From Patescibacteria group bacterium (lineage in GTDB: Bacteria > Patescibacteriota > Minisyncoccia > Phycocordibacterales > UBA9973), in contig JAGWLB010000001.1 of the NCBI GenBank assembly GCA_028865035.1, forward strand, positions 99,668 to 163,667: 64,000 nucleotides of DNA, in the 5' to 3' direction. Positions 43,651 through 58,212 of this stretch are shown here, in pieces. Below the pieces are notes generated by a model. That model did no database searches and was not told the DNA's origin. It worked only from the letters and a program-made list of their open reading frames with translations. The translations under genes were made by a program, and so were the position numbers. Numbering within the stretch: the first letter of the stretch is position 1; each line of letters starts with the position of its first letter.

Positions 43651-44520
43651 ATGAAAAATTTTCGTAGATATTTACCCTATATTTTATTTATATTTCTGAT
43701 AATTTTTCTGTCACTTATCTGGTATGTTGTATATCTAAAAGATACTCACAGTAATATATTAAAAGTTGCCTATTTAGATGTTGGTCAAGGAGATGCTATC
43801 TACATAGAAGCACCTAATGGTAGGCAGATGCTTATCGATGGTGGTCCTGGAGCGTCTGTCTTGTCGAGCCTAGGACAAGTTATGCCTTTTGCTGATCGAT
43901 CTATCGACTTAGTTCTCGCTACTCATACCGACGCTGATCATATCGGAGGTTTTCCTTTTGTTCTAGATAAGTACAAAGTAGGGCATATTATCGAGAATGG
44001 TGCTTCATCAGATACTCGGACATTTAGAGATCTTGAGAGTAGAGTAAATAAATATAAAATTGATAAAATTATTGCTACTAGAGGTACTCGCATAATACTA
44101 GATAAAAATCTAAATATTTATTTTGATATTTTATTTCCAGACAGAGATATTTCTAATTTTGAATCAAACGATGGATCCATAGTAGGACGATTAGTTTATG
44201 GTAATGAATCTTTTATGTTTACAGGTGATGCTACAAAATACACTGAACATCTAATTATGACAAATGAAAATTCTTCTACTCTTCACTCGCAAGTTTTAAA
44301 GCTTGGTCATCATGGTTCACGATATTCATCTAGTGAGCTTTGGCTTCTAAGTGTTCACCCAGATGTAGCTATTATTTCTGCTGGCCTCAACAATCGCTAC
44401 GGTCACCCTCATCAGGAAGTTCTTGATTTACTAAAGAAGCTTTCTATCCCATACTTAACGACTTATCAAAAAGGAACAATCATTTTTAAAACTGATGGAG
44501 TAACTTTGACCCATAACTAA
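43651..44520 (+). CDS. ComEC-type metallo-beta-lactamase-fold nuclease domain protein with an N-terminal TM anchor (the separated C-terminal part of ComEC)
   Basis: VAYLDVGQGDAIYIEAPNGRQMLIDGGPG; HTDADHIGG; GHHGS. Confidence 0.7.
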   Translation: MKNFRRYLPYILFIFLIIFLSLIWYVVYLKDTHSNILKVAYLDVGQGDAIYIEAPNGRQMLIDGGPGASVLSSLGQVMPFADRSIDLVLATHTDADHIGGFPFVLDKYKVGHIIENGASSDTRTFRDLESRVNKYKIDKIIATRGTRIILDKNLNIYFDILFPDRDISNFESNDGSIVGRLVYGNESFMFTGDATKYTEHLIMTNENSSTLHSQVLKLGHHGSRYSSSELWLLSVHPDVAIISAGLNNRYGHPHQEVLDLLKKLSIPYLTTYQKGTIIFKTDGVTLTHN

Positions 44521-44633: not shown

Positions 44634-44879
44634 TTATTTAATTATTCCAGCTTTCTTTAGTACTGCGTACGCACCGTTTTTGTTAATAGTTTTTATGGCA
44701 GTAGTAGATAGCGTAAGAGGGAAGTACTTTTTAAGCTCTGGTACGTATATACGTTTCTTTTGAAGGTTGGGATATTTACGAACCATACCAGTAGGGTTGA
44801 ATTTGGTAGCACGAACAACGTTGGAGTAGCCTCCAGCCATCTTTGAACCTTTTTTAGTTATTGCACAAACTTTTGCCAT
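44634..44879 (-). CDS. rpmB: 50S ribosomal protein L28
   Basis: MAKVCAITKKGSKMAGGYSNVVRATKFNPTGMVRKYPNLQKKRIYV parallels L28 MSRVCQVTGKRP..GNN.SHA.N.TKRRF.PNL; internal ATG chosen over the longer ORF. Confidence 0.8.
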   Translation of the reverse strand: MAKVCAITKKGSKMAGGYSNVVRATKFNPTGMVRKYPNLQKKRIYVPELKKYFPLTLSTTAIKTINKNGAYAVLKKAGIIK

Positions 44880-44906
44880 AGATGGGATTATGCTATCATA
44901 TAAAAC

Positions 44907-45557
44907 ATGCCTATGCAAGCTGTCGATGGAATATTCTATGTAATTATACTTATAATGTCGGTAATCATCCATGAATTTGCTCATGGTTATGTAGCGTATC
45001 TTTTAGGTGATGACACTGCTCGTCTTGAAGGAAGACTTACTCTAAACCCTCTAAAACATCTAGATCCATTCGGTTCAGTTGTTTTACCTTTACTTCTAAT
45101 ATTGATGCAAGCAGGTTTTGTTGTCGGATGGGCTCGCCCTGTGCCTTACAATCCGAATAATCTTAGAAATAGGAAAAGAGGAACTCTGATGGTTGCTTTT
45201 GCGGGTATTCTCGCCAATATTTTTATTGCTATTTTATTTGGTTTATTTATTAGGTTTGCGCCGTATTTTGGTTTGCCACCATACACTTCTAATCCATTAT
45301 TAATGGATCCTTTTTATAAAATAGCTAGTATTATTGTTCTCCTTAATCTTGTTTTGGCTTTGTTTAATCTTATCCCCATTCCACCATTAGATGGATCAAA
45401 AATATTATTCTCATTTATGCCGTATAAATTCCGTAAAATTGAAAATTTTTTAGAACGATGGGGAATGTTTATTTTACTTTTCTTCATTATCTTTCTTTGG
45501 AGTCAGGTTTCACCGATTATTTACGGAGCTTTCTCTTTAATTACAGGTATACATTAA
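44907..45557 (+). CDS. Site-2 protease family (M50) membrane metalloprotease
   Basis: HEFAHG HExxH in a TM helix; downstream NLIPIPPLDGSK. Confidence 0.75.
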   Translation: MPMQAVDGIFYVIILIMSVIIHEFAHGYVAYLLGDDTARLEGRLTLNPLKHLDPFGSVVLPLLLILMQAGFVVGWARPVPYNPNNLRNRKRGTLMVAFAGILANIFIAILFGLFIRFAPYFGLPPYTSNPLLMDPFYKIASIIVLLNLVLALFNLIPIPPLDGSKILFSFMPYKFRKIENFLERWGMFILLFFIIFLWSQVSPIIYGAFSLITGIH

Positions 45558-45616: not shown

Positions 45617-48600
45617 ATGAGTGAAAAAAAATATTTCTTCAGATTTTTCAAATTATCTCACCTGGTAATAGTATCAGTGTTGTTGCTCGTATTATCTGTC
45701 GGTATTTACACTAAAGCTTATGCCATTGCCTCACCATATAATCCAGGAGATACCTTAGATCCTGCTTGTGCACCAGGGGATGTAAACTGTATTGTGCAGA
45801 TAGTTCCTTCACCGTGGACTACTGTTGCTGGTGGTATTAGTTACACTGGAGGAAACGTAAATATTAATTCTGGTTCTGCCTATCAATATGGTGGAGTAAA
45901 TGTTATCACTGCACAGACAAGTAAAAATAATTATTTCTTTGGTAATGCTGGAAATTTGACTGGAACTGGCATTAAAAATACGGCTGTGGGGGCTGGGGCA
46001 CTTTCGTCAACTACGACAAGTGCATGGAATACTGCAGTGGGGTATGACGCTCTACAGCTCAATACAACAGGGAACAGTGATGTCGCTTTCGGATACTGCG
46101 CTCTTTTAAATAATACGACTGGTTATTTCAACGCCGCGCTGGGAACATGTGCACTTCTTCACAATACAACTGGGTACGATAATACTGCTACTGGTTTTGA
46201 TTCGCTTTATTACAATACCACTGGTTATGCTAATACTTCTACTGGCTCAGTAGCTCTTTATGGTAATACTACTGGTAATAATAATGTGGCTATGGGATAT
46301 TACTCTCTTTTTAAAAATACTACCGGGTCAAATAACACAGCCATAGGAATGCAATCTCTTTATGACCTAAATATTATTGCTAATGATGGTTCTGGTAACA
46401 ACACTGCTATCGGTTACAATACCGGTCGTGGTATCACAACCGGTATCAACAACACCATCATCGGTGCCAATGTCACTGGTCTTGCGACAGGACTTTCAAA
46501 CAATATCATCATCGCCGATGGAGCAGGGAATCAGAGAATTAATATTGATAACACAGGATTATTAAAACTCGGTACTTATGGTGTAGGTACTCACACTGGT
46601 ACCGCAGCTTATACATTACAGGTTGATGCAAGCGGTAATGTGATTGAAGGACCTGCAGTTTTTTCTCCGTGGACTACTGTTGCTGGTGGTATTAGTTACA
46701 CCGGAGGAAACGTAAATATTAATTCTGGTTCTGCGTATCAATATGGCGGGGTAAATGTTATTACTGCTCAGACAGCTAGTAATAATTATTTCTTTGGTAA
46801 TGCCGGGAATTTGACGGGGACGGGTGTTAAGAATACAGCAGTAGGAGGTAGTGCTTTGATTGCTACCACTACTGGAGGTTATAATACTGCTCTAGGAGAG
46901 GAAGCTTTAAAAGTTAATGATGCTGGTGCACAAAACACTGCAGTAGGTACTTATTCTTTAACCGCTAATACTTCTGGTTCATATAATACTGGACTTGGAG
47001 TAACTACTTTATCTAGAAATACGACAGGAAAGGATAATTTAGCTGTTGGGCACAGCGCCCAGTATTACAATACTACTGGTAATTATAATACTGCTATTGG
47101 TATGTATGCTTTGCATAACAATACTACAGGTTCATATAATACTGCTATTGGTATGCAAGCCCTATATGATATTAATAGCATTACGGCCAATGATTCCGGC
47201 AACAACACCGCTCTCGGTTACAACACCGGTCGTGGTATCACTACTGGTATCAACAACACTATCATCGGTGCCAATGTCACTGGTCTTGCGCCAGGACTTT
47301 CAAACAACATCATTATTGCCGATGGAGCAGGGAATCAGAGAATTAATATTGATAACACAGGATTATTAAAACTTGGTACTTATGGTGTTGGTACTCATAC
47401 TGGTACTGCAGCTAAAACCCTCCAAGTAGATGCAAGTGGAAATGTGATAGAGGGAGCTTCACTTATTGGTTCTACTTCAACAGGCACAGGCACTGAAACA
47501 TGGCTCGGTACAAGTGCTGCGGGGTTGGGAACGGCGTCGACAGATCATACAGTTTTTATTGGTGTTGATACAGGAACAAATTCAACTTTTGGAAATCATT
47601 CAAATTTTATAGGATCAAGTGCTGGTTATAATGCAACAAATGCCACTAATTCTAATTTCGTAGGATTCAATGCTGGTGGTTATGCTACTAATGCTAACCA
47701 ATCAACTTTTTTTGGCGAAAATGCCGGAAGTTCTGCTTCTAATGCCGCATATTCTATTTTTATTGGAATGAATTCTGGTAAAAATGACACTGTTAATAAC
47801 ACTGCTACATTTGACAATACAACCACTTTTGCTAACACATCTATACTACTAGGTTACAACACTTCCACCGGTGGTTTCTCCAACTCTATAGCTATTGGTG
47901 CTTATGCCACTAACACTGCCACTAATCAATTTATGATTGGTTCAGCAAATCGTCCAATAGATAGTACCCGTATCAACGGTACCGGAGGTACACAATGTAC
48001 TATCACTACAGGTACAGGTATAGCTTGTACATCCGATGAAAGATTAAAAACAAACATTGTCGATCTATCAGATGATACACTCGCTAAACTTGCTGGAGTT
48101 CGTACTGTAACTTTCAACTGGTTAGCTACTCCTAATGTTAACCCCCAAATAGGTTTCATCGCTCAAAACCTAGAACCAATCTTCCCAGAACTAGTAGCTA
48201 CAGATTCAAATGGATACAAGTCAGTCTACTACTCTCACATAACCCCAATTCTTGTTAAAGCCATCCAAGAGATGAATCTAAAAGTTGATAAGTTATCATC
48301 ATTAGATATTTCGCAATCCAATTCACTCGGTTCACTTATTACAAGCTTCTTAGGTTCTGTTGGTAATGGTATAAAAGATTTGTATGCGAGTGTAGTGCAT
48401 ACCAACAAACTTTGTATTAATAAATCTGATGGTAATGAAGTTTGTCTTACTGGAGATCAATTACAACAATTAATGGTCAACCAAAGTTCTCCTCAGAATT
48501 TCTCTACAGTAATATACGTACCTACTACACCTACTACCACCACTACTGCACCTACAACACCTACAGATACTAAGAATACCGATACAACTTCTACTCCTAC

Positions 48601-48946
48601 TCCTACAAATACAAGTAGTACCACTTCAACCACTCCAACCACCACCACAACAACTTCTACTTCTTCAACCACATCAACCTCAGACACAACTACACCATCT
48701 ACCAATACCACCACCACAACACCTACAGATATTAAGAATACCGATACAACTCCTACTCCTACAAATACAAGTAGTACCACTTCAACTACACCTACCACCA
48801 CAACAACTTCTACTTCTTCAACCACACCAACTCCTACCACTACTACACCCGCACCTACAACACCTACAACAACAGCAACATCAACCCCAACTCCTAGCAC
48901 TACACCCACACCTACAACAACAGATACCCCAACACCGGTAAATTAA
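45617..48946 (+). CDS. 1109-aa trimeric-fibre-like surface protein: signal/anchor, YadA-head-like 16-residue NTA(V/I)G...NTTG repeats (two ~280-aa copies), peptidase-S74 intramolecular chaperone domain, Thr/Pro-rich repeat tail
   Basis: S74-like SDERLKTNIVDLSDDTLAKLAGVRTVTFNW...PQIGFIAQNLEPIFPELV...YKSVYYSHITPILVKAIQE; duplicated PWTTVAGGISYTGGNVNINSGSAYQYGGVNVITAQT. Confidence 0.65.
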   Translation: MSEKKYFFRFFKLSHLVIVSVLLLVLSVGIYTKAYAIASPYNPGDTLDPACAPGDVNCIVQIVPSPWTTVAGGISYTGGNVNINSGSAYQYGGVNVITAQTSKNNYFFGNAGNLTGTGIKNTAVGAGALSSTTTSAWNTAVGYDALQLNTTGNSDVAFGYCALLNNTTGYFNAALGTCALLHNTTGYDNTATGFDSLYYNTTGYANTSTGSVALYGNTTGNNNVAMGYYSLFKNTTGSNNTAIGMQSLYDLNIIANDGSGNNTAIGYNTGRGITTGINNTIIGANVTGLATGLSNNIIIADGAGNQRINIDNTGLLKLGTYGVGTHTGTAAYTLQVDASGNVIEGPAVFSPWTTVAGGISYTGGNVNINSGSAYQYGGVNVITAQTASNNYFFGNAGNLTGTGVKNTAVGGSALIATTTGGYNTALGEEALKVNDAGAQNTAVGTYSLTANTSGSYNTGLGVTTLSRNTTGKDNLAVGHSAQYYNTTGNYNTAIGMYALHNNTTGSYNTAIGMQALYDINSITANDSGNNTALGYNTGRGITTGINNTIIGANVTGLAPGLSNNIIIADGAGNQRINIDNTGLLKLGTYGVGTHTGTAAKTLQVDASGNVIEGASLIGSTSTGTGTETWLGTSAAGLGTASTDHTVFIGVDTGTNSTFGNHSNFIGSSAGYNATNATNSNFVGFNAGGYATNANQSTFFGENAGSSASNAAYSIFIGMNSGKNDTVNNTATFDNTTTFANTSILLGYNTSTGGFSNSIAIGAYATNTATNQFMIGSANRPIDSTRINGTGGTQCTITTGTGIACTSDERLKTNIVDLSDDTLAKLAGVRTVTFNWLATPNVNPQIGFIAQNLEPIFPELVATDSNGYKSVYYSHITPILVKAIQEMNLKVDKLSSLDISQSNSLGSLITSFLGSVGNGIKDLYASVVHTNKLCINKSDGNEVCLTGDQLQQLMVNQSSPQNFSTVIYVPTTPTTTTTAPTTPTDTKNTDTTSTPTPTNTSSTTSTTPTTTTTTSTSSTTSTSDTTTPSTNTTTTTPTDIKNTDTTPTPTNTSSTTSTTPTTTTTSTSSTTPTPTTTTPAPTTPTTTATSTPTPSTTPTPTTTDTPTPVN
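45806..46650 (+). repeat. Intragenic ~0.8-kb duplication, copy 1 (about 90% identity to copy 2)
   Basis: Shared blocks such as CCGTGGACTACTGTTGCTGGTGGTATTAGTTACAC...; offset about 855 bp. Confidence 0.75.
46661..47455 (+). repeat. Intragenic ~0.8-kb duplication, copy 2
   Basis: See copy 1. Confidence 0.75.
48500..48940 (+). repeat. Tandem Thr/Pro-rich coding repeats (PTTPTDTKNTDTT(S)TPTPTNTSSTTSTTPTTTTT units) forming the C-terminal tail of the fibre protein
   Basis: A ~150-bp unit repeated with variation; it also creates a spurious poly-Val ORF on the minus strand. Confidence 0.7.
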
Positions 48947-48955
48947 TTTATCTAA

Positions 48956-51900
48956 ATGAAAATTACAATTAAAAGATTTATAAAATATATCTTATTAATA
49001 ATATTATTTAGTATAGCTTTCCAAGCTAATGCTTCTATTATTAATGGAAGTATCAGTACTTCACATTACACGGCTCAAGTTTGCGAGACAGCTTCGTGTG
49101 CTGTGTCTACTACATCTCCAGTAAATTTTGGTAATTTCTCAACTACTCCAGCGTCTGATGTTGTCGTAACAGATACTGCACTGAAAGGATATATTTGGGG
49201 AGAATCATTTGGCTGGGCTGTACTTAACTGTATCAACACTGCAAGTGGGTGCACCTCTACGAACAATAATTTTAAAGTTGCCAACGATAGCAACGGACAT
49301 CTCTCTGGTTATGCTTGGGGACAGAATGCTGGATGGATTAACTTTGGACCTTTTGTAAACAGTACAACTTCCCCTGTAGTTATAAATAGTTCTGGACAGT
49401 TTAACGGTTATGCTTGGAGTCAGAATTATGGTTGGATAAAATTCGATTGTTCTAATCCAAGTTATTGTGTTCAGACTGATTGGCGTCCACAAAATACTAG
49501 ACCTCAGTGTAGTGATGGTATAGATAATGATAACGATGGCCTCATTGATAGTGCTGACCCTGGTTGTCATACGGATCTTAATGCAAACAACTCTAGTTCA
49601 TATGATCCGACTCTCAACAGTGAATATAATCGAACAGGTGGTGGAGGTTTTCCAAGTGGCGGCGGTAATGATATGTGTCCCAATATTGCTGGAGTACAAT
49701 CTACTGTTCCTGATGGTAAAATCTTAGATGCATCAGGACAGTGTGTAGATAATATATGTCCCAACACTGTAAACTATAACTCTGTACCACTATCTTCTTC
49801 TGGGCCGTTTACTGTAAATGTAAAAAATACAACGAAAATCGGTTTTGCTATTAAAGTATTTGATACGATAAATCCTGCTCATACAGAAGGGGATATTGCT
49901 ACAGAAAATGCCTTAAATAAAAATTCAAGTGATCAGGTTGTTGTTTACGATACTTCATTGAACAAATATGTTTTAGGTTTTGAAGATGTTGTCGGTGGAG
50001 ATTACGATTATAATGATCTTGTCGTTGGTGTTGGTTTATCTTGCGATCCTCTCTCGGGTAACACTTGCCCTAACCCTTCTTCTCTTTCAGATACAACTTC
50101 AGAAATTATAAATCACGCGCCGTCAGGTGAACTAGACCTCCAAACAATTTTAAATAATGCAGGATATAACATAAATACAATACTTGATCAGAAGCAATAT
50201 CAAGTATGGGACATTCCACAAAATACTACTGTTACCGTCAGCACAAAATTCATAAATAAATTTGCTGGCAATAGTTTTGTCTTTGGTTATTATACGAATG
50301 GCTCACTAGCAAATTTTGTTCCAATATTTAAAACTGCGAATATAGCAGGGTCTACTACAGTTCCTACTATGTGTACTCCTAATCCTAGTGATTATTGTCC
50401 AAATATTAATGGAGTACAGACTTCGCTTCCACCTGGTATGGCTTTAAACACCACAGGTCAATGTGTATATATAGTACCAGATGTATGTTCAAACATTCCT
50501 GGATCACAGCTTACAGTACCAGATGGTTATGGTTATAACTCTTTAGGTCAGTGTGTTCCTGTGGCGGCGATAGATCAATGTCCAAATATTGTAGGAAATC
50601 AGATGACAGTTCCAAGTGGTATGTCATTAAATACACAAGGGCAATGTGTCTCTTTATCTGTACCTGATGCGTGTCCGAATATACCAGGGTCTCAGTCTTC
50701 TATCCCAACAGGGGATATGTATGATTCATCTGGTAATTGTGTACCTCATACTACTATTGATCTATGCTCAAATATTGCAGGAAATCAGACAACGATTCCA
50801 AGTGGTATGGTTGTGAATACTGGAGGACAGTGTGTGCCACCAGCAGTACCCGACGCCTGTCCAAATATTGATGGAACACAGTTAAGAATACCTAGTGATA
50901 TGACTTATGATACACAAGGTAATTGCGTACCATTAATGAAGATAGATGCTTGTCCAAATATTGCTGGAACACAAACTACTTTACCTAAAGGAATGTCTTA
51001 TGACTCTCAAGGTAATTGTGTTGCTAGTCTTTGTCTTACAAATCCGAAACTTTGTGCTCCTCCAGCTGATGCTTGTTCTGTTGATCCAGCTTCGTGTGTT
51101 TCTCCGGCTAGTTTCTGTACTACTCACCCCGAGCTATGTGTTCCACCACCTACTTGCAAAGGATTGCAATGCCTTTCTCCTGGTTATATAAAAAGCATAA
51201 TTAATAATCTGACTATGCTTACTCCTATTCCTTTTGCTAAAAGAGCTAGTTCTATTATGATTACTGCTGGTATTATTTCAGGTATAGCTCTGAGTTTAGT
51301 TACATCTGTATTTACAACGCCAACTTCATTATCCGATATTTTTAATCTCCCTGTCCGTCTTTGGAGTTTGTTATTATCAGCACTTGGATTTAAAAAACGC
51401 AGAAGACCTTGGGGAACTGTATATGATAGTGTCACCAAAGAACCTCTTGATCCAGCATATGTTGCACTTTTAGATTTACAAGGTAAGGAAGTAGCTACTT
51501 CTATAACGGATATTGATGGTAGATATGGATTCTTAGCCCCAGCTGGTCAGTACAGAATGGTAGCTCACAAGACTAATTATTTATTCCCATCAGATAAGAT
51601 GAAAGATAAAAGCAGTGATGAGTTATATGAAGATTTGTATTTTGGAGATATTATTAACGTGAATGAAGACGAAGGAGTAATTATCAAAAATATTCCTATG
51701 GATGCAATTAATTTTGACTGGAATGAATTTGCAAAACAAGACCAAAGATTAATGAAGTTCTACTCAAGGCGCGACATCTGGATTGTTCGTATTTCAAGCG
51801 CTCTTTTCTATTTTGGACTTTTGCTTACCATCATTGCAGTTGTAGGATTACCAAATGTTTACAATATAGCGACTCTAGTTGCTTATATGGTATTGCTGGT

Positions 51901-52186
51901 GTTTAAGAATGTAACCATCAGTCCTAGTTCCCTTGGTACTGTAGTTTTCAGTGAGAACGGTAATCCTGTGTCATTTGCTATTATGAGAATATTCAGAGCA
52001 GATGATAATTATGAAGTTGCACATAAGATTGTAAATAAAACTGGTAAGTACTACTGTATTGTGCCAAATGGAACATATTATGTTGAAATTGAAAAGAAAA
52101 ATCTAGATGCTACTTATAGCCTAATCTATACATCTGGTCCTATTATTGTTAAAAAGGGTCATATAAATAATAAGTTTAAAGTATAA
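48956..52186 (+). CDS. 1076-aa surface protein: signal peptide, Ca-binding-like DGIDNDNDGLID motif, DUF4114-like segment, nine ~40-aa CPNI(A/P)G(x)Q..P.G...GQCV repeats, Cys-rich stalk, TM segments, and a C-terminal carboxypeptidase-regulatory-like beta domain
   Basis: VVVYDTSLNKYVLGFEDVVGGDYDYNDLVVGV (DUF4114-like); repeats visible 49676-51000; GRYGFLAPAGQYRMVAHKTNYLFP. Confidence 0.5.
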   Translation: MKITIKRFIKYILLIILFSIAFQANASIINGSISTSHYTAQVCETASCAVSTTSPVNFGNFSTTPASDVVVTDTALKGYIWGESFGWAVLNCINTASGCTSTNNNFKVANDSNGHLSGYAWGQNAGWINFGPFVNSTTSPVVINSSGQFNGYAWSQNYGWIKFDCSNPSYCVQTDWRPQNTRPQCSDGIDNDNDGLIDSADPGCHTDLNANNSSSYDPTLNSEYNRTGGGGFPSGGGNDMCPNIAGVQSTVPDGKILDASGQCVDNICPNTVNYNSVPLSSSGPFTVNVKNTTKIGFAIKVFDTINPAHTEGDIATENALNKNSSDQVVVYDTSLNKYVLGFEDVVGGDYDYNDLVVGVGLSCDPLSGNTCPNPSSLSDTTSEIINHAPSGELDLQTILNNAGYNINTILDQKQYQVWDIPQNTTVTVSTKFINKFAGNSFVFGYYTNGSLANFVPIFKTANIAGSTTVPTMCTPNPSDYCPNINGVQTSLPPGMALNTTGQCVYIVPDVCSNIPGSQLTVPDGYGYNSLGQCVPVAAIDQCPNIVGNQMTVPSGMSLNTQGQCVSLSVPDACPNIPGSQSSIPTGDMYDSSGNCVPHTTIDLCSNIAGNQTTIPSGMVVNTGGQCVPPAVPDACPNIDGTQLRIPSDMTYDTQGNCVPLMKIDACPNIAGTQTTLPKGMSYDSQGNCVASLCLTNPKLCAPPADACSVDPASCVSPASFCTTHPELCVPPPTCKGLQCLSPGYIKSIINNLTMLTPIPFAKRASSIMITAGIISGIALSLVTSVFTTPTSLSDIFNLPVRLWSLLLSALGFKKRRRPWGTVYDSVTKEPLDPAYVALLDLQGKEVATSITDIDGRYGFLAPAGQYRMVAHKTNYLFPSDKMKDKSSDELYEDLYFGDIINVNEDEGVIIKNIPMDAINFDWNEFAKQDQRLMKFYSRRDIWIVRISSALFYFGLLLTIIAVVGLPNVYNIATLVAYMVLLVFKNVTISPSSLGTVVFSENGNPVSFAIMRIFRADDNYEVAHKIVNKTGKYYCIVPNGTYYVEIEKKNLDATYSLIYTSGPIIVKKGHINNKFKV

Positions 52187-52294
52187 ATCTATAATTTATA
52201 GATTTATACAAGACAGCTTGCATTTTTACTTACCTTATAGTAAAGTGTTGTGACTAGTCCAAGAGCGACTATTTTTGTTTTATTCAGTTATATT

Positions 52295-52720
52295 ATGCCT
52301 ACAATCAATCAACTAGTTCGAAAGAACCGAAAAATAACGAAAAGAAAATCCAAAGCGGTAGCTTTGGCTCGTGGTTTTAATTCAATTAAGAACAAACCAG
52401 TTTTTTACCCTGCACCATTTAAGCGTGGCGTGTGTACTAAAGTTTCTACTACTACTCCTAAAAAGCCTAACTCAGCTCTTCGTAAGATTGCTCGTGTGAG
52501 ACTCACAAATGGTATGGAAGTTACTGCCTACATACCAGGTGAAGGGCATAACCTACAAGAACACTCAGTGGTTATGATTCGTGGTGGACGTGTGAAAGAC
52601 TTAATCGGTGTACGTTATCACATAGTTCGTGGAAGACTTGATGCTACTGGAGTTGATAAGCGTAGAGTATCAAGAAGTCTATACGGTACGAAAACTCCTA
52701 AAGAAAGTACAAAGAAATAA
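52295..52720 (+). CDS. rpsL: 30S ribosomal protein S12
   Basis: [10 protein letters not shown]...[16 protein letters not shown]...; internal ATG at 52295 chosen. Confidence 0.9.
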
Positions 52721-52747
52721 TTAAGAATTAACTAATACAAATTACGA

Positions 52748-53218
52748 ATGAGACGAAAAATAAAAAATAGAAATATAGTAGAAGCTGATATTATGTATAA
52801 TTCGCAAAAGTTAGCGAAGTTTATAAATAATATTATGATTCACGGAAAGAAAGAGACTGCACGAAAAGCTGTCTATATGGCCTTTGATATTATCAAAGAA
52901 AAGACTGGTAACCCAAATCCTCTTGAAGTTTTCGATACTGCTATCAAGAATGCAAGTCCTATGGTTGAAGTTCGTTCACGTCGTATTGGTGGTGCAAACT
53001 ATCAGGTTCCACGTGAAGTTCGCCCAGAGCGACGTACTGCACTTGCTATGCGTTGGATCATCCTCGCTGCTCGTGGTAAGAAAGGCGCACCTATTCACCA
53101 GAAGCTTGCCGAAGAACTTATCCTTGCTTCAAAGAATGAAGGTAGTGCTATTAAAAAGCGTGAAGATACTCACAAAATGGCAGAATCCAACAAAGCTTTC
53201 GCTCACTTCGCTTGGTAA
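52748..53218 (+). CDS. rpsG: 30S ribosomal protein S7
   Basis: KFINNIMIHGKKETARKAVY...MVEVRSRRIGGANYQVP. Confidence 0.9.
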   Translation: MRRKIKNRNIVEADIMYNSQKLAKFINNIMIHGKKETARKAVYMAFDIIKEKTGNPNPLEVFDTAIKNASPMVEVRSRRIGGANYQVPREVRPERRTALAMRWIILAARGKKGAPIHQKLAEELILASKNEGSAIKKREDTHKMAESNKAFAHFAW

Positions 53219-53238
53219 TACAATTTATATACGCTCAC

Positions 53239-53270
53239 AAAACTCACCCAAAGGGGTGAGTTTTGTTTTG
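53239..53270 (+). terminator. Rho-independent terminator directly after rpsG; a second weak hairpin plus T7 sits at about 53290-53307
   Basis: CTCACCC-AAAG-GGGTGAG followed by TTTTGTTTT. Confidence 0.7.
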
Positions 53271-53380
53271 GGACCCAAAAGATGTACTGCTCCTGTAAGG
53301 AGTTTTTTTGTTGACAAAATATCAAAAAAGAGTAGTTTAAAAGTAAATAAACCTAATTTCAAAAATTTAAAATTATAGCA

Positions 53381-53989
53381 ATGAAGAAAGTAACACTTAT
53401 TTTTCCTGCCACTATAGGTTTGAAAAAAGAAAAAATACTTAAAAATCAGGTAAAGGATTTTTGTGTAAAAAATATTTATGATTTTGAAGTTGTTAAAGAC
53501 AATTCAAATTCGATAAAACAAACGCAAATGAAAATCGAACATGATCCGCAGCTTTTGGCTATTGCTCAAAGTATAACAAGTGGATTATCTGCAATGCAGC
53601 TCAAAGATCTCGGGGATTTATCTGAGACAATTGTAGGTGAAAAGAAAATTAGACAATATATTATGGGCAATAGGAAAACAAATCAGCACTCATATTTTGT
53701 TGATGATACACGTCAAATTGGAGACATAGGTAATGTGAACAATTGGGCGAGAAAGAAAACCGTTGACCCGGATAATGTTACAAGAAATACTTCTGGTTTC
53801 GTTATTTTAACTGAGGGGGTGCACTTAAATCAAAATTTCAGTTGTTTAAATCCAGAAAAGTCAGAAAGAGAAAGGATTTACTTAGTAAAAGACAGCCCTA
53901 AACCTTATCGTAAATTTGATGGGAATTACAATAGACATTGTAGTAAATGTCCGTTTACTGAAGGATGTGTTGTGTGTACTTTACCTTAA
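53381..53989 (+). CDS. Orphan 202-aa hypothetical protein with a C-terminal CxxC-x5-CxxC knuckle, inserted between rpsG and fusA
   Basis: No recognisable family; own putative promoter (TTGACA at about 53300) and flanking terminators. Confidence 0.45.
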   Translation: MKKVTLIFPATIGLKKEKILKNQVKDFCVKNIYDFEVVKDNSNSIKQTQMKIEHDPQLLAIAQSITSGLSAMQLKDLGDLSETIVGEKKIRQYIMGNRKTNQHSYFVDDTRQIGDIGNVNNWARKKTVDPDNVTRNTSGFVILTEGVHLNQNFSCLNPEKSERERIYLVKDSPKPYRKFDGNYNRHCSKCPFTEGCVVCTLP

Positions 53990-54012
53990 TGTTAATGTTT
54001 CATTCTAATGTT

Positions 54013-54043
54013 AAAGCCGTCGTAATAAGACGGCTTTTTTTAT
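54013..54043 (+). terminator. Rho-independent terminator after the orphan gene
   Basis: AAGCCGTC-GTAATAA-GACGGCTT followed by T7. Confidence 0.75.
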
Positions 54044-54124
54044 TTGCAAATTTAGCATATATATTGTATATTCTAGGGACATAGACATCCGTGTCTTTTT
54101 ATTTTTATCAAGTAATTTATATAT

Positions 54125-56266
54125 ATGGAAAGAGATTATCCTTTAGAGAAAGTTAGAAATTTTGGAATTATTGCCCACATTGATGCAGGTAAGACTACAA
54201 CTACCGAGCGTGTTCTTTACTATACTGGTGTGTCACACAAGATAGGTGAAGTTCACGATGGTGAGACTACGACAGACTGGATGGAGCAAGAAAAAGAGCG
54301 TGGCATCACTATTACTTCAGCTGCAGTAACTTGTTTCTGGACACCTACATATGCTCTCGCAGATAAAAATAAAAAAAATCGTTTTAATATTATTGACACC
54401 CCTGGTCACATCGACTTTACGGTAGAAGTAAAAAGATCACTTCGTGTTCTTGATGGCGCTGTGGTTGTATTTGATGGTGTTGCTGGTGTAGAACCACAAT
54501 CAGAGACGAACTGGCGCTATGCCGATGAAGCTCAAGTTCCTCGTATATGTTTTATCAACAAACTTGATCGTACAGGTGCTTCTTTTGAGCATTCATATAA
54601 AACTATTCTTGACCGTTTAAATAAAAATGCTGTTCGTATGCAGATACCTATTGGGTTGGAAGAGAACCACGAAGGAGTTATCGATCTGCTTCGTATGAAA
54701 GCTTACTATTTTGAAGGTACTATGGGTAACTTAGTCGTTGAAAAAGACATACCTGAGAATCTATTAGCTGATGCAGAAAAGTATCATGCTGAGCTTATTG
54801 AGAAAATCGTTGAACAAGATGATCAAGTGATGAGTGATTACTTAGAAGGTAAGACTCCAGACTTAGATACACTAAAGAAGCTAATGCGTAAAGCTGTTAT
54901 TGCGAATAAGCTTTTCCCGGTTTTTGCTGGTAGTGCTCTGAAGAACAAAGGTGTACAGCTTGTACTTGATGCAGTTGTTGATTATCTTCCAAGTCCTCTC
55001 GATATTCCTGCTATTCAAGGTATAAATCCTGATACAGATGAAGTTATGGAGCGTCATGCATCTGACAGCGAACCATTCTCTGCATTAGCATTTAAAGTTG
55101 CTACCGATCCATTCGTTGGCCAAATAATATTCTTCCGTGTGTACTCTGGTACTGTTTCTGCTGGAAGTTATGTTTACAACCCTCGTACTCGTAACAAAGA
55201 ACGCATTGGACGTATTTTAAGAATGCATGCCAACGAACGTGAAGAAGTGAAGAAAGTTTATGCTGGAGAAATAGCTGCCGCAGTAGGTCTAAAAGATACT
55301 GTAACTTCAGATACTCTTTGTGATGAAGAGCATCCTATTGAGTTGTATCGTATTGTTTTCCCTGAACCAGTTATCTCTCTTCGCATCGAACCAAAAACAA
55401 AAGCTGATCAAGAAAAAATGGGTATGGCACTTTCTCGTCTTGTGCAAGAAGATCCTACTTTTCGTGTTACTACTGACCCAGAAACAAATGAGACAATCAT
55501 CGCAGGAATGGGCGAACTACATCTTGAAATCATTGTTGATCGTCTAAAGCGTGAGTTTGCTGTAGAAGCAAATGTCGGTAATCCACAAGTTGCTTATCGT
55601 GAGACTATTACTGGTACATCAAGTGTTGAAGGTAAATACATCAAACAGTCAGGAGGTAGAGGTAACTATGGTCACGTTAAGATCAAAGTTAAACCTATGG
55701 ATCTGTCTGTGAAAGAAGAAGATCTTCCAAAGAATACCAAACGCGAAAAAGGTTTTGAATTTATCAATACTATTAAAGGTGGAGCTATTCCTCAGGAGTA
55801 TATTCCAGCTTGTGAAAAAGGATTTAAAGAAGGTCTCGACAGGGGAGTATTAGCTGGATTCAAGCTTGTGAATGTATCGGTTGAGTTATGGGATGGTTCA
55901 TTCCACGATGTGGACTCAAATGAAATGGCTTTCAAGATAGCGTCTTCTATGGCAGTTCAGGATGCTTGTAAAATAGCAAAGCCAGTTATCTTAGAGCCAA
56001 TGATGAATGTTGAAGTTGTTACTCCAGACAAATTTATGGGTGATGTCACTGGTAGTCTTTCATCAAAGCGTGGTCTTATAGAAGGTATGGAAGATCGCGG
56101 TATGAATCAAGTAGTTAAAGCCATCGTTCCTTTATCTGAAATGTTCGGGTATATGACCACTCTCCGTTCTATGACTGAGGGCCGAGCTGGTTTCACAATG
56201 GAATTCTTGCGTTACGATATTGTTCCACAGAACGTCGCTACTGCTATCATTGAATCTCGCAAATAA
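54125..56266 (+). CDS. fusA: Elongation factor G
   Basis: [32 protein letters not shown]; ~713 aa. Confidence 0.95.
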
Positions 56267-56281
56267 CATTATAAATAAAAT

Positions 56282-56313
56282 AACCTCAGACTTAGTCTGA
56301 GGTTATTTTATTT
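56282..56313 (+). terminator. Rho-independent terminator after fusA
   Basis: AACCTCAGAC-TTA-GTCTGAGGTT followed by ATTTTATTT. Confidence 0.75.
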
Positions 56314-56334
56314 ATATATAATTTAATATACAAT

Positions 56335-58212
56335 ATGTATATGTTATCAAAATTACAAAAAATATTTCACAAATGGACACCGATTATTGTTGGTCTGACT
56401 ATTTTTTGTTCTATTTTCTTATATTTTTATCACCAGATCATTATTATGAACAAGCTTCTGTTTGTTGTACTTGTCGTTTTTTCTATTCCTATATGGATAG
56501 ATATCATTGTAAATATTATAAAGCGTAAGTTCGGCATTGATCTTATCGCCGGTCTTGCTCTTGCTTGTTCTGCTTTACTCGGTCAGTATATTCCTGGAGT
56601 AATTGTTCTTCTGATGCTCTCAGGGGGAGAAGCTCTAGAGACATATGCAATGCTTCGTGCTCGTAAATCTTTATCTTCACTACTATCTTTAATACCATCC
56701 AAAGCACACGTTAAAAAAGATGGCGGTATAGTCGAAGTTGAAAGTCGTGAAGTAACTACAGGGACTGTTATCTTAGTTAAAGCAGGTGAAGTAATACCTG
56801 TCGATGGGGTAGTTGAAGGTGGAGAATCTTTTGTAGATGAATCTATTATGACAGGTGAATCTATGCCAGTGAAGAAAAGTAAAGGATCAAATGTTCTAGC
56901 TGGTACTGTAAATACAGACGCGATTTTAGAAATCAGGACAGTTAAAGCTCTTTCTGATAGTAGACTTGAAGGTATCATTAAAATGGTTCGGCAAGCAGAA
57001 GAGAATAAAGCTCCCTTTGTACGTTTAGCTGACAGATACAGTGTGTACTTTACGATTTCCACTCTTGTCATCGCTTTTCTTGCTTGGCTTATATCTGGTG
57101 ATGTTGTGCGCCTGCTAGCCGTTCTTGTGGTTGCTACACCTTGCCCCTTAATACTTGCTACACCGATTGCTTTTATGTCGGGTATGAGCTCGGCTTCGCG
57201 TCGAGGTATTATTGTAAAGAATGGCGGAGCCCTCGAAACGTTAGACAGAGCACGAACTTTTGTTTTCGATAAGACTGGAACCGTGACTCTAGGTACTCCC
57301 AATATCCATACTGTTCATAGTTTCTCATCTTTATCAGATAAAGATGTTATGCGATTATCAGCATCTGTCGACCAGCCATCAGTTCATATCTTAGCTCGTG
57401 CTTTGGTTGAACATATCCAGAAAGACGACAAAGTCCATCTTTCATACCCTGAAAAATTTAAAGAAACATTTGGAGATGGAGTCAGTGGTGAGATAGATGG
57501 AGTAAAATATTTATTTGGCAAGTTGTCTTTCTTGAGAAACTTAGGAGTGAAAATACCTGATGAAGTTTTAAAGAATTATGAAGAAGAAAGAACTGAAGGT
57601 ATAATCCCTGTTTATTTAGCAAAAGACACCGAGCTACTTGGAGCCGTATTTTTCCGTGATGAAGTTCGTAAGGATGCAAAAACACTTTTCACTGGTTTGA
57701 AAAAAAGTGGAGCTAAACGTATTGTTTTGCTATCTGGCGACAAAGAGTTCGTTGCGAAATCTATTGCTGATTCTTTAAACATTAGTGAATACAAAGCTGA
57801 ATGTTTACCAGACGAGAAATTAGACTTCATAAAAAACATTCAAACTAAAGATAAAGAAATAGTAGCGATGGTCGGCGACGGTGTGAATGATTCACCAGCA
57901 ATTGCTCAAGCTGATGTCGGTATTGCTTTAGGTACACACGGGGCTACAGCTGCGAGTGATAGTGCAGATATTGTTATTATTTCTGGCTCCGTAGGACTTG
58001 TTCACGATGCTTATCTGATAGCAAAGCGTTCGCTTGGAGTTGCTCGTGAAGGTATATTTATAGGTATTGGATTATCTTCTGTGTTTATGATTATTGCCCT
58101 TTTCGGTTACCTGGCTCCATTCCTAGGAGCTTTAATACAAGAAGGTATAGATGTTGCTGTTATTCTATATGCTTTACGTGCAGGTATCCCTGTGAAAATA
58201 GATAATAATTAG
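56335..58212 (+). CDS. P1B-type heavy-metal-translocating P-type ATPase with a PCP TM6 motif (P1B-5-like) and no N-terminal metal-binding domain
   Basis: ATPCPLILATP in the TM; DKTGTVT phosphorylation site; MVGDGVNDSPA. Confidence 0.75.
   Translation: MYMLSKLQKIFHKWTPIIVGLTIFCSIFLYFYHQIIIMNKLLFVVLVVFSIPIWIDIIVNIIKRKFGIDLIAGLALACSALLGQYIPGVIVLLMLSGGEALETYAMLRARKSLSSLLSLIPSKAHVKKDGGIVEVESREVTTGTVILVKAGEVIPVDGVVEGGESFVDESIMTGESMPVKKSKGSNVLAGTVNTDAILEIRTVKALSDSRLEGIIKMVRQAEENKAPFVRLADRYSVYFTISTLVIAFLAWLISGDVVRLLAVLVVATPCPLILATPIAFMSGMSSASRRGIIVKNGGALETLDRARTFVFDKTGTVTLGTPNIHTVHSFSSLSDKDVMRLSASVDQPSVHILARALVEHIQKDDKVHLSYPEKFKETFGDGVSGEIDGVKYLFGKLSFLRNLGVKIPDEVLKNYEEERTEGIIPVYLAKDTELLGAVFFRDEVRKDAKTLFTGLKKSGAKRIVLLSGDKEFVAKSIADSLNISEYKAECLPDEKLDFIKNIQTKDKEIVAMVGDGVNDSPAIAQADVGIALGTHGATAASDSADIVIISGSVGLVHDAYLIAKRSLGVAREGIFIGIGLSSVFMIIALFGYLAPFLGALIQEGIDVAVILYALRAGIPVKIDNN

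Follow-up and report, generated by a model that had tools for sequence, protein, structure and literature searches.

FusB-type proteins (FusB, FusC and FBP), which bind elongation factor G (EF-G), are two-domain proteins of about 200 aa in which a C-terminal domain with a four-cysteine zinc site makes the contact with EF-G (PMC3352095). FusB has a bundle of four helices as its N-terminal domain, and its cysteines form a CXXC-X23-CX5C treble-clef site inside an alpha/beta domain (PMC3352095). A gene of similar outline was analysed here in a 64,000-nt stretch of DNA from a Patescibacteria group bacterium (assembly GCA_028865035.1, contig JAGWLB010000001.1, positions 99,668 to 163,667 of the forward strand), hereafter named the window. 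This orphan gene is encoded beside fusA, between the genes for ribosomal protein S7 (rpsG) and EF-G (fusA), and like the FusB-type proteins its product has about 200 aa, two domains and four invariant cysteines in the C-terminal domain. An earlier reading of the letters alone (the sequence-only reading) had described it as a self-contained gene inserted into the conserved rpsL-rpsG-fusA (str) operon, and had proposed either a lineage-specific translation-associated factor or a selfish or cargo gene. Our results indicate that the 202-aa open reading frame (ORF) is probably a genuine, independently transcribed and vertically inherited gene of a clade of the Candidate Phyla Radiation (CPR) related to Saccharibacteria, and neither an operon member with rpsG and fusA nor a mobile element.

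The orphan gene and its transcription unit

The orphan ORF is a genuine gene under purifying selection. Both the start (MKxxxL) and the length of its product are kept in relatives. Over the last 32 codons, compared in 8 lineages, the differences per codon position were 0.23, 0.12 and 0.57, and 375 synonymous versus 202 non-synonymous codon differences were counted. This codon-position test was used in place of the ratio of non-synonymous to synonymous rates (dN/dS), which was uninformative for near-identical contigs because their DNA is identical. The protein is a 100% match to KGI58_00815, whose source is a 203-kb contig of a metagenome-assembled genome (MAG). The genes rpsL, rpsG, the orphan ORF and fusA all lie on the + strand, and the features of this part of the window are the following:

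about 52295-52720, + strand: rpsL, ribosomal protein S12 (translation); the likely start is an internal ATG
52748-53218, + strand: rpsG, ribosomal protein S7, 156 aa (translation)
53237-53266, + strand: first intrinsic-terminator hairpin after rpsG, an inverted repeat with a 13-bp perfect stem and a T-rich 3' side
53289-53310, + strand: second terminator after rpsG, a 6-bp hairpin (53289-53303) followed by T7
53311-53338, + strand: orphan-gene promoter, with -35 TTGACA (53311-53316), a 16-nt spacer and -10 TAGTTT (53333-53338)
53381-53989, + strand: orphan gene of 202 codons and a stop, deposited at NCBI as KGI58_00815 ("hypothetical protein", Patescibacteria group bacterium)
54013-54043, + strand: orphan-gene terminator, a 9-bp GC-rich hairpin (54013-54037) and T7; z = -2.95
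54044-54072, + strand: fusA promoter, TTGCAA-N17-TATATT
54075-54106, + strand: small hairpin and U-tract opening the fusA leader; terminator-like, possibly an attenuator
54125-56266, + strand: fusA, EF-G, 713 aa (translation); two stretches of about 12 aa may be insertions compared with a typical EF-G
56272-56314, no strand assigned: strong 20-bp bidirectional terminator after fusA, from the terminator scan

The distance from rpsG to fusA is 906 bp, and it holds the terminators, the TTGACA element, the 202-aa ORF and the further terminator where the sequence-only reading had placed them. The 102-nt stretch after rpsG folds at -30.7 kcal/mol (z = -3.76), and none of 200 shuffles was equally stable. 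We then compared these signals with those of homologous loci from other genomes and metagenomes, cited below by locus number. A counterpart of the second hairpin and its T-run is present upstream of the family gene in L003, L005, L008, L010, L018 and L033. A TTGACA-N16/17-TAnnnT promoter stands upstream of the family gene in L003, L005, L008, L010, L018, L033, L036 and L038, in differing genomic contexts, and the -10 variants across the window and these relatives are TAGTTT, TAGGGT, TAATTT, TATGGT, TAGATT, TATTCT and TACAGT. It is kept whether the upstream gene is rpsG, a Peptidase_C15 gene, priA, a metallo-beta-lactamase gene or another; it is weaker in L002 and L041 and was not seen in L001. 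A terminator equivalent to that of the orphan gene occurs at the same place in L002, L004, L009, L010, L018 and L033.

The fusA promoter, ATTTGCAA-N17-GTATA[GT]T, is invariant in six aligned lineages and near-identical in L033, L038 and L041. That fusA restarts from a promoter of its own, as had been proposed for the window, is therefore true of every lineage read. Directly before a U5-7 run, a 4-8-bp hairpin opens the fusA leader at the same place in six lineages with differing stem sequences, as judged from individual folds per lineage, and the hairpin and U-tract are also visible in L033, L038 and L041. In the window alone this hairpin is weak (z = -0.23). Searches of Rfam returned no match near any gathering score for the spacer sequences and no family matching the fusA promoter-leader element.

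Within positions 52000-56500, 10 terminator-like sites were counted versus 2.1 +/- 1.4 in shuffles. Promoter-like sites in the same simple scan were not above chance (14 found, 16.5 expected), and promoters were therefore judged by conservation; the scan did not call the orphan-gene promoter at 53311-53338 because its -10 element is weak. The conserved flanking terminators and the separate promoters indicate that the orphan ORF would be monocistronic and that fusA would be separately promoted throughout the clade. Members of one str operon would have no terminator or promoter between neighbouring genes, and here both sides of the orphan gene appear to carry conserved ones. Conservation of the promoter and flanking terminators across relatives bears out the earlier description of the gene as self-contained.

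Distribution, gene order and the question of mobility

The family is small. A sequence search of 5.77e9 proteins gave only 7 matches to the orphan protein at E <= 0.01, and a filter-free profile search of 1.84e9 cluster representatives gave 22. A pattern scan of one genome per species for 185,579 species found 6 loci, in three Saccharibacteria, one Wolfebacteria, one Giovannonibacteria and one MAG labelled Gammaproteobacteria; 15 family loci were present in JGI metagenomes. Taxonomically labelled matches are nearly all CPR. The word orphan, used from the start, is apt: the protein has no Pfam, NCBIfam, PHROG, PADLOC or PDB-sequence match, and has a few dozen relatives in billions of proteins. 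No curated Pfam or NCBIfam ribosomal-protein or translation-factor model matched the orphan protein, the module sequences or the full-length members.

Of the 11 lineages with a full-length protein, seven have the gene directly 5' of fusA (the window; L002; L004-L007; L008/L009; L010; L018; L033-L035). An eighth lineage, L041, has two genes between the family gene and fusA, within 1.4 kb. The remaining three place it elsewhere: L001 has it between an NYN-domain gene and pnp-NYN-rpsO, L036/L037 have it after priA, and L003 is the third. GC content ranges from 30 to 57% in the fusA-adjacent lineages, whose S7 proteins are 66-72% identical to that of the window. Gene assignments in the window are supported by similar comparisons: its S12 is 67-83% identical to those of L010, L026 and L038, its S7 is 65-72% identical to those of L005, L010, L026 and L038 (Pfam Ribosomal_S7 is on record for the L005 homologue), and its EF-G is 79-98% identical to those of L002, L004, L006, L007, L010, L018, L033 and L038. 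In one of these lineages, L018, represented by a 2.9-kb metagenome contig, both the homologue (296-814) and fusA (930-2900) look frameshifted, and an assembly error is likelier than pseudogenisation.

The upstream neighbour of the family gene is more variable. It is rpsG in the window and in L004/L005/L007, and the space upstream of fusA holds the ORF alone in the window and L004. That space holds a Peptidase_C15 gene and the ORF in L008/L009, a 119-aa gene of no assigned function and the ORF in L033, and the ORF, a membrane-protein gene and a Mur-ligase-like gene before fusA in L041. The L010 slot holds a weak 2OG-oxygenase-like gene, a small ORF and the family ORF, with rpsG further upstream. 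This 2OG-Fe(II)-oxygenase-like gene (L010 728-1552, in a GC-rich Saccharibacteria MAG) was assigned at E = 0.002, below the Pfam cutoff.

Of all relatives, L038/L039 is the most telling; it shares its wider neighbourhood with the window. Its genes are, in order, one for a metallo-beta-lactamase, rpmB (which runs on the opposite strand), Peptidase_M50, rpsL, rpsG and fusA; the window has the counterparts at 43651-44520, 44637-44882 (- strand) and 44907-45557, then two giant surface-protein genes, then rpsL. The rpsG-fusA spacer of L038 has 340 nt and is ORF-less, and no ORF remnant was detected in it by hmmsearch with filters off. L038 has a family member, P0011, between the beta-lactamase gene and rpmB, 2 kb from the spacer. 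The ORF-less spacer therefore argues for the gene being an addition to the junction and not a universal component. What the spacer holds instead (L038 6709-7047) is a terminator, a promoter-like site of the form TTGACA-N17-TATAGA, about 190 nt of non-coding sequence that is highly structured, and another terminator. The structured part (-62.9 kcal/mol for 200 nt) matches nothing in Rfam and is a candidate for a small RNA.

As far as these gene orders can be read, the occupants of the rpsG-fusA junction change from lineage to lineage, as in a slot that genes enter and leave. We think it rather likely that rpsL-rpsG and fusA are separate transcription units, that the boundary before the fusA promoter gathers lineage-specific genes, and that the orphan gene is its most persistent occupant. 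The proposed insertion into a conserved operon thus held in part: the gene is an addition to the junction, but the operon into which it was thought to have been inserted is not intact in the clade. Given that fusA has a promoter of its own, that tuf does not follow it and that other genes occupy the slot, the insertion is less remarkable than it first seemed. Across the relatives the gene is not universal at this position, bears no ribosomal-protein annotation and is not decaying, and so shows none of what the sequence-only reading would have taken as its refutation.

A seat between two highly conserved genes is also what free-standing homing endonucleases have, and the selfish or cargo gene first proposed (a homing endonuclease, toxin or defence gene aimed at the conserved rpsG-fusA junction) would account for the fast evolution of the protein, which is 41-48% identical among relatives whose EF-G is 79-98% identical, and for its varying position. 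One weak match to RnlA_toxin_N (E = 0.039) points the same way; it was repeated in no other member and was treated as chance. No homologue was found among 2.9 M viral contigs (IMG/VR), 50,697 GenBank phage records (INPHARED) or 72,556 plasmids (PLSDB). PADLOC and PHROG searches for defence and phage functions were negative, so that a defence or phage origin was rejected, no nuclease domain (HNH, GIY-YIG, LAGLIDADG and similar) was matched in Pfam or PHROG, and no toxin or defence domain was found either. No mobility gene or integrase is present at the locus, and a transposon-like insertion was likewise rejected: no direct, inverted or terminal repeats flank the gene beyond a repeated terminator/-35 junction. 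Composition is native (GC of the family gene is 0.31-0.35, versus 0.35 for the window), and the C-terminal module of the protein is under strong purifying selection. This half of the original proposal was not borne out, and we regard a selfish gene as extremely improbable.

Other parts of the neighbourhood also depart from the classical str/S10 arrangement, which is broken 3' of fusA as well. After the terminator at 56272-56314 come a 625-aa P-type (E1-E2) ATPase (56335-58212), then FKBP and an efflux system resembling MacAB, and neither tuf nor rpsJ follows fusA in the window. On the other side, rpsL is preceded by the two putative giant surface-protein genes (45617-48946, 1109 aa; 48956-52186, 1076 aa), which lie between Peptidase_M50 and rpsL and are missing from the syntenic L038. 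The first combines a Peptidase_S74 domain (endosialidase chaperone) with a tail rich in Thr and Pro, which produces an extreme GC skew of -0.7 to -0.83 at 48450-48900; in the second, CarboxypepD_reg and DUF4114 occur along with CPNI.G.Q motifs that contain Cys and are repeated.

The four-cysteine module and its possible partners

In the alignment of full-length members, the first half of the protein is variable and the second half very conserved. Three parts can be distinguished, the last with a terminal knuckle:

53381-53665, + strand: N-terminal domain, residues 1-95, fast-evolving; alpha/beta fold of the thioredoxin type, lacking a CxxC active site
53666-53785, + strand: linker, residues 96-135; invariant columns, predicted disordered
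53786-53986, + strand: C-terminal module of about 67 aa, strongly conserved in the family
53939-53977, + strand: Cys4 knuckle C187-x2-C190-x5-C196-x2-C199, ending three residues before the C-terminus

Structure prediction with AlphaFold2 (AF2) from 7 sequences was unusable, with a predicted local distance difference test (pLDDT) score of 45; the model used comes from a 38-sequence run and resolves the N-domain only. In this run, pLDDT reached 98 in the N-domain and was below 50 in the linker. The predicted N-domain has a thioredoxin-type alpha/beta fold. Its best Foldseek matches were mitoribosome and complex-I chains and thioredoxins (E about 1e-2), and it matches viral thioredoxins at E = 4e-3. 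The loop after strand 1, PATIGLKKE, holds no CxxC or CxxS active site at helix 1. Among the 7 aligned full-length members, none has a cysteine in that loop, no cysteine is invariant anywhere in the N-domain, and the Pfam Thioredoxin and Glutaredoxin hidden Markov models gave no match at E <= 10. Without a CxxC or an invariant cysteine, the N-domain would therefore be a non-catalytic thioredoxin-like scaffold.

Residues K99, N101, Y105, F106, N121, W122, R124 and K125 of the linker are invariant despite the predicted disorder, and form a basic/aromatic pattern (K-x-N-Q..YF ... NWARK..DPD). The module that follows reads GxVI..PVHL.D..V.CLN..KPERERxY.V..S.KPYRKFDG...RHCSKCPFPEGCVMCTLP and ends in HC-x2-CPF-x-EGC-x2-C-TLP. 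C187, C190, G195, C196 and C199 do not vary in any of the 44 aligned sequences, and R177, F179, G181 and L201 hardly do. The terminal CSKCPFTEGCVVC knuckle picked out by the sequence-only reading is thus real, and no other part of the protein is as conserved. The module of 30 members was compared with the Pfam models (2025 copy), and none gave a match even at E <= 10. Most family proteins are basic, with a pI of about 9, but that of L010 is acidic (pI 5.5).

The module occurs well beyond the full-length form, and the N-terminal regions to which it is joined are of at least three kinds. It stands alone in proteins of 67-101 aa, follows a UVR motif in P0015 (Pfam UVR, E = 7e-6) and ends Paceibacterota proteins of about 415 aa that have DUF7178. 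P0011 of L038 (260 aa) has another N-terminal region, and has the linker and C-terminal module in common with the orphan protein. A 77-aa distant member is convergently encoded just after rpoC-rpsL-rpsG in L026, and short members in L014, L020 and L024 lie beside ruvX, a tRNA-binding-domain gene and dedA, these neighbours being identified by eye from translations. Two short Cys4 subfamilies (MPxYTQKEV... and ...NPEYAxALxKGExWA...) share this last position (L014 5863-7671; L024 600-2543; L020 3278-5248), and the shared position suggests that they are divergent orthologues. Other members are found among transporters, restriction-modification genes or genes without assigned function. Information-processing neighbours are frequent by inspection, in genomes (CPR) that are rich in such genes.

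Two recurrent neighbours were recorded. In two unrelated contexts, members are flanked by genes with an NYN domain (predicted RNase): L001 (1145-1642 and 4792-5301), where these genes stand together with pnp and rpsO, and L019 (1462-2016), where the assignment was made by eye. A Peptidase_C15 (pyroglutamyl peptidase) gene adjoins a member in two distant lineages, the fusA-adjacent L008 (1-681)/L009 (3-389) and the Wolfebacteria locus L011 (5193-5804); no copy is present within the 64-kb window.

We propose the following explanation for this architecture. The four cysteines would hold one structural metal ion, most likely Zn2+, which would rigidify the strongly conserved beta-rich C-terminal module. 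This module would be the functional head of the protein and dock onto a conserved macromolecular partner. The N-domain, non-catalytic and swapped for other N-terminal regions in paralogues, may act as an interchangeable adaptor, and this variable part, joined to the head by the conserved, probably disordered basic/aromatic linker, would tune or localise the docking interaction. Zinc seems a somewhat better candidate than an Fe-S cluster. That the partner is a component of the translation or RNA-processing machinery is a tentative suggestion to which we do not lean.

Several observations weigh against this explanation and against the gene being independent of fusA. With five residues between them, the CxxC pairs stand closer than in classical zinc ribbons, and the spacing would suit an Fe-S site as well; the C-terminal module is modelled only at a pLDDT of 57-82, which drops below 50 in the last residues. 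Direct adjacency to fusA in 7 of 11 lineages, maintained over GC contents of 30-57% and S7 identities of 66-72%, could mean a tie to EF-G, and the short member just after rpsG in L026 likewise hints at one. These fusA-adjacent lineages form one broad clade (EF-G 79-98% identical), and do not count as independent observations either way.

If such a tie exists, the protein could bind EF-G or the nearby ribosome and modulate translocation or recycling, as a CPR-specific functional analogue of the FusB-type proteins, and the linkage would be kept by the joint work of the two products. In favour of this, the gene stays on the same strand directly 5' of fusA in the seven lineages and, within 1.4 kb, in the eighth, while its upstream neighbour changes. 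Other members lie near rpsO-pnp, rpmB, rpsT and ruvX with the tRNA-binding-domain gene; thioredoxin-like mitoribosome chains are among the top Foldseek matches of the N-domain (E about 0.01, weak); and FusB has a similar size, domain number and C4-zinc C-terminal domain that binds EF-G (PMC3352095). However, the slot gathers unrelated genes too, such neighbours are expected by chance in CPR genomes dense in translation genes, and no sequence or architectural likeness to FusB was found, Pfam and PDB profile searches being empty. A terminator and a promoter appear to split the gene from fusA everywhere, which speaks against co-transcription, and L001, L003, L036 and P0011 of L038 sit elsewhere. 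With this barrier, these exceptions and a single clade in which inheritance suffices, the adjacency may therefore be inheritance. We consider an EF-G or ribosome partner unlikely on balance. The translation-associated factor put forward in the sequence-only reading is possible, fusA adjacency in 7 of 11 lineages being the one piece of evidence that would favour it.

The linkage could also reflect local control, with a basic zinc-knuckle protein that binds the fusA promoter or the leader hairpin-plus-U-tract, sets EF-G expression and so replaces the S7-mediated translational coupling that was lost with the uncoupling of fusA from rpsG. Regulators are often encoded beside their targets, the protein is basic in most members, and a leader hairpin and U-run follow the fusA promoter in all lineages read, with stems that differ in sequence. 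L038 and L041, however, keep the fusA promoter and leader without an adjacent family gene, and the L010 homologue is acidic. Further, no known DNA- or RNA-binding domain was detected, and the same C-terminal module is found in many unrelated contexts. A local regulator is thus very improbable in our view. The wider proposal, in which the Cys4 module is a previously undescribed CPR-restricted metal-binding domain and the full-length form is either an EF-G/ribosome-binding factor or a regulator acting on the fusA-leader hairpin, is improbable too; if true, it would add a lineage-specific part to the core translation machinery of these ultra-small episymbiotic bacteria, analogous in function to the FusB-type proteins without being related to them.

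The last alternative concerns the cysteines. These could bind an Fe-S cluster or form reversible disulfides and, together with the thioredoxin-like domain, make the protein an electron carrier or a redox sensor with no part in translation. Besides the fold of the N-domain, a superoxide dismutase gene near the L038 member and the weak 2OG-oxygenase-like gene adjoining the L010 homologue would agree with this. The thioredoxin-like domain nevertheless lacks the CxxC active site and any invariant cysteine, most family members carry the module without any thioredoxin-like domain, and no Pfam thioredoxin, glutaredoxin, Fe-S family or Whib match was obtained even at E <= 10 (for Whib, in 30 module sequences or 7 full-length members). 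A redox role therefore appears quite doubtful. We retain the reading of the orphan gene as a separately transcribed, inherited gene whose product would dock through a metal-stabilised module.

Significance and comparison with known systems

In CPR/Patescibacteria the genomes are reduced, the ribosomes are unusual, and the majority of lineage-specific proteins lack characterisation. What is new here is a small, sharply conserved four-cysteine module that matches no Pfam model of the 2025 copy and that turned up in the searches almost exclusively in CPR, apart from one MAG labelled Gammaproteobacteria. With its several N-terminal pairings, it is well suited to studies of structure and metal binding. 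If the linkage to fusA proved functional, the gene would provide a new accessory elongation factor in organisms that are difficult to work with. Otherwise the locus would still document how rpsL-rpsG-fusA-tuf, supposed to be invariant, was split into separately promoted units whose breakpoints new genes have entered. CPR genomes have many unannotated families, of which this is one, and its immediate significance is moderate.

Several groups of described proteins resemble parts of the orphan protein. Its predicted N-domain is close to non-catalytic thioredoxin-fold proteins, such as the KaiB/SasA N-domain, the b' domains of protein disulfide isomerases and the thioredoxin-like subunits of complex I and the mitoribosome. 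Its C-terminal module recalls the Cys4 zinc-knuckle or ribbon proteins of translation (bL32, bL36, C+ uS14/bL31/bL33), which are likewise short and basic, have paired CxxC motifs and are encoded among ribosomal genes. The orphan family differs in being present in few CPR lineages instead of universally and in having no Pfam or NCBIfam ribosomal match, and the 5 residues between its knuckle halves make a shorter spacing than these proteins have. The sub-motif C-x2-C-P-[FY]-x3-C resembles CxxCPVxxxC of WhiB-like Fe-S proteins and CxxCx5C of SPASM clusters, which would agree with the redox alternative; of the WhiB pattern (Cys-xn-CxxC-x5-C, then a helix-turn and a basic tail), this sub-motif is the one similar element. 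One candidate of another kind, an IF1/aIF-1A-like oligonucleotide/oligosaccharide-binding (OB) fold, was rejected. It had been suggested by inspection and by P0014, which gave a single weak NCBIfam aIF-1A match (E = 0.0035), but hhalign comparison of the C-module profile with an approximate E. coli IF1 sequence returned a probability of 0.5%.

The same module of about 70 aa stands at the C-terminus of the DUF7178 proteins of Paceibacterota. Their N-terminal 330 residues, which match Pfam DUF7178, are unrelated to the thioredoxin-like N-domain, and their genomic context has no fusA link. A literature search on DUF7178 and on rpsG/fusA in Saccharibacteria returned nothing useful.

The FusB-type proteins share the most with the orphan protein in outline, but differ from it in detail. 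FusB homology was rejected on architecture, cysteine motif and lack of sequence matches: neither a Pfam match nor a PDB chain of FusB or FusC was found at E <= 10 with single-sequence and profile queries. The predicted N-domain is thioredoxin-like and not a bundle of four helices, and the cysteines form a CxxC-x5-CxxC site at the extreme C-terminus, compared with CXXC-X23-CX5C in FusB. Binding to domain IV of EF-G is a further trait of the FusB-type proteins. FusB may be considered the nearest functional analogy to the orphan protein, as an analogy only.

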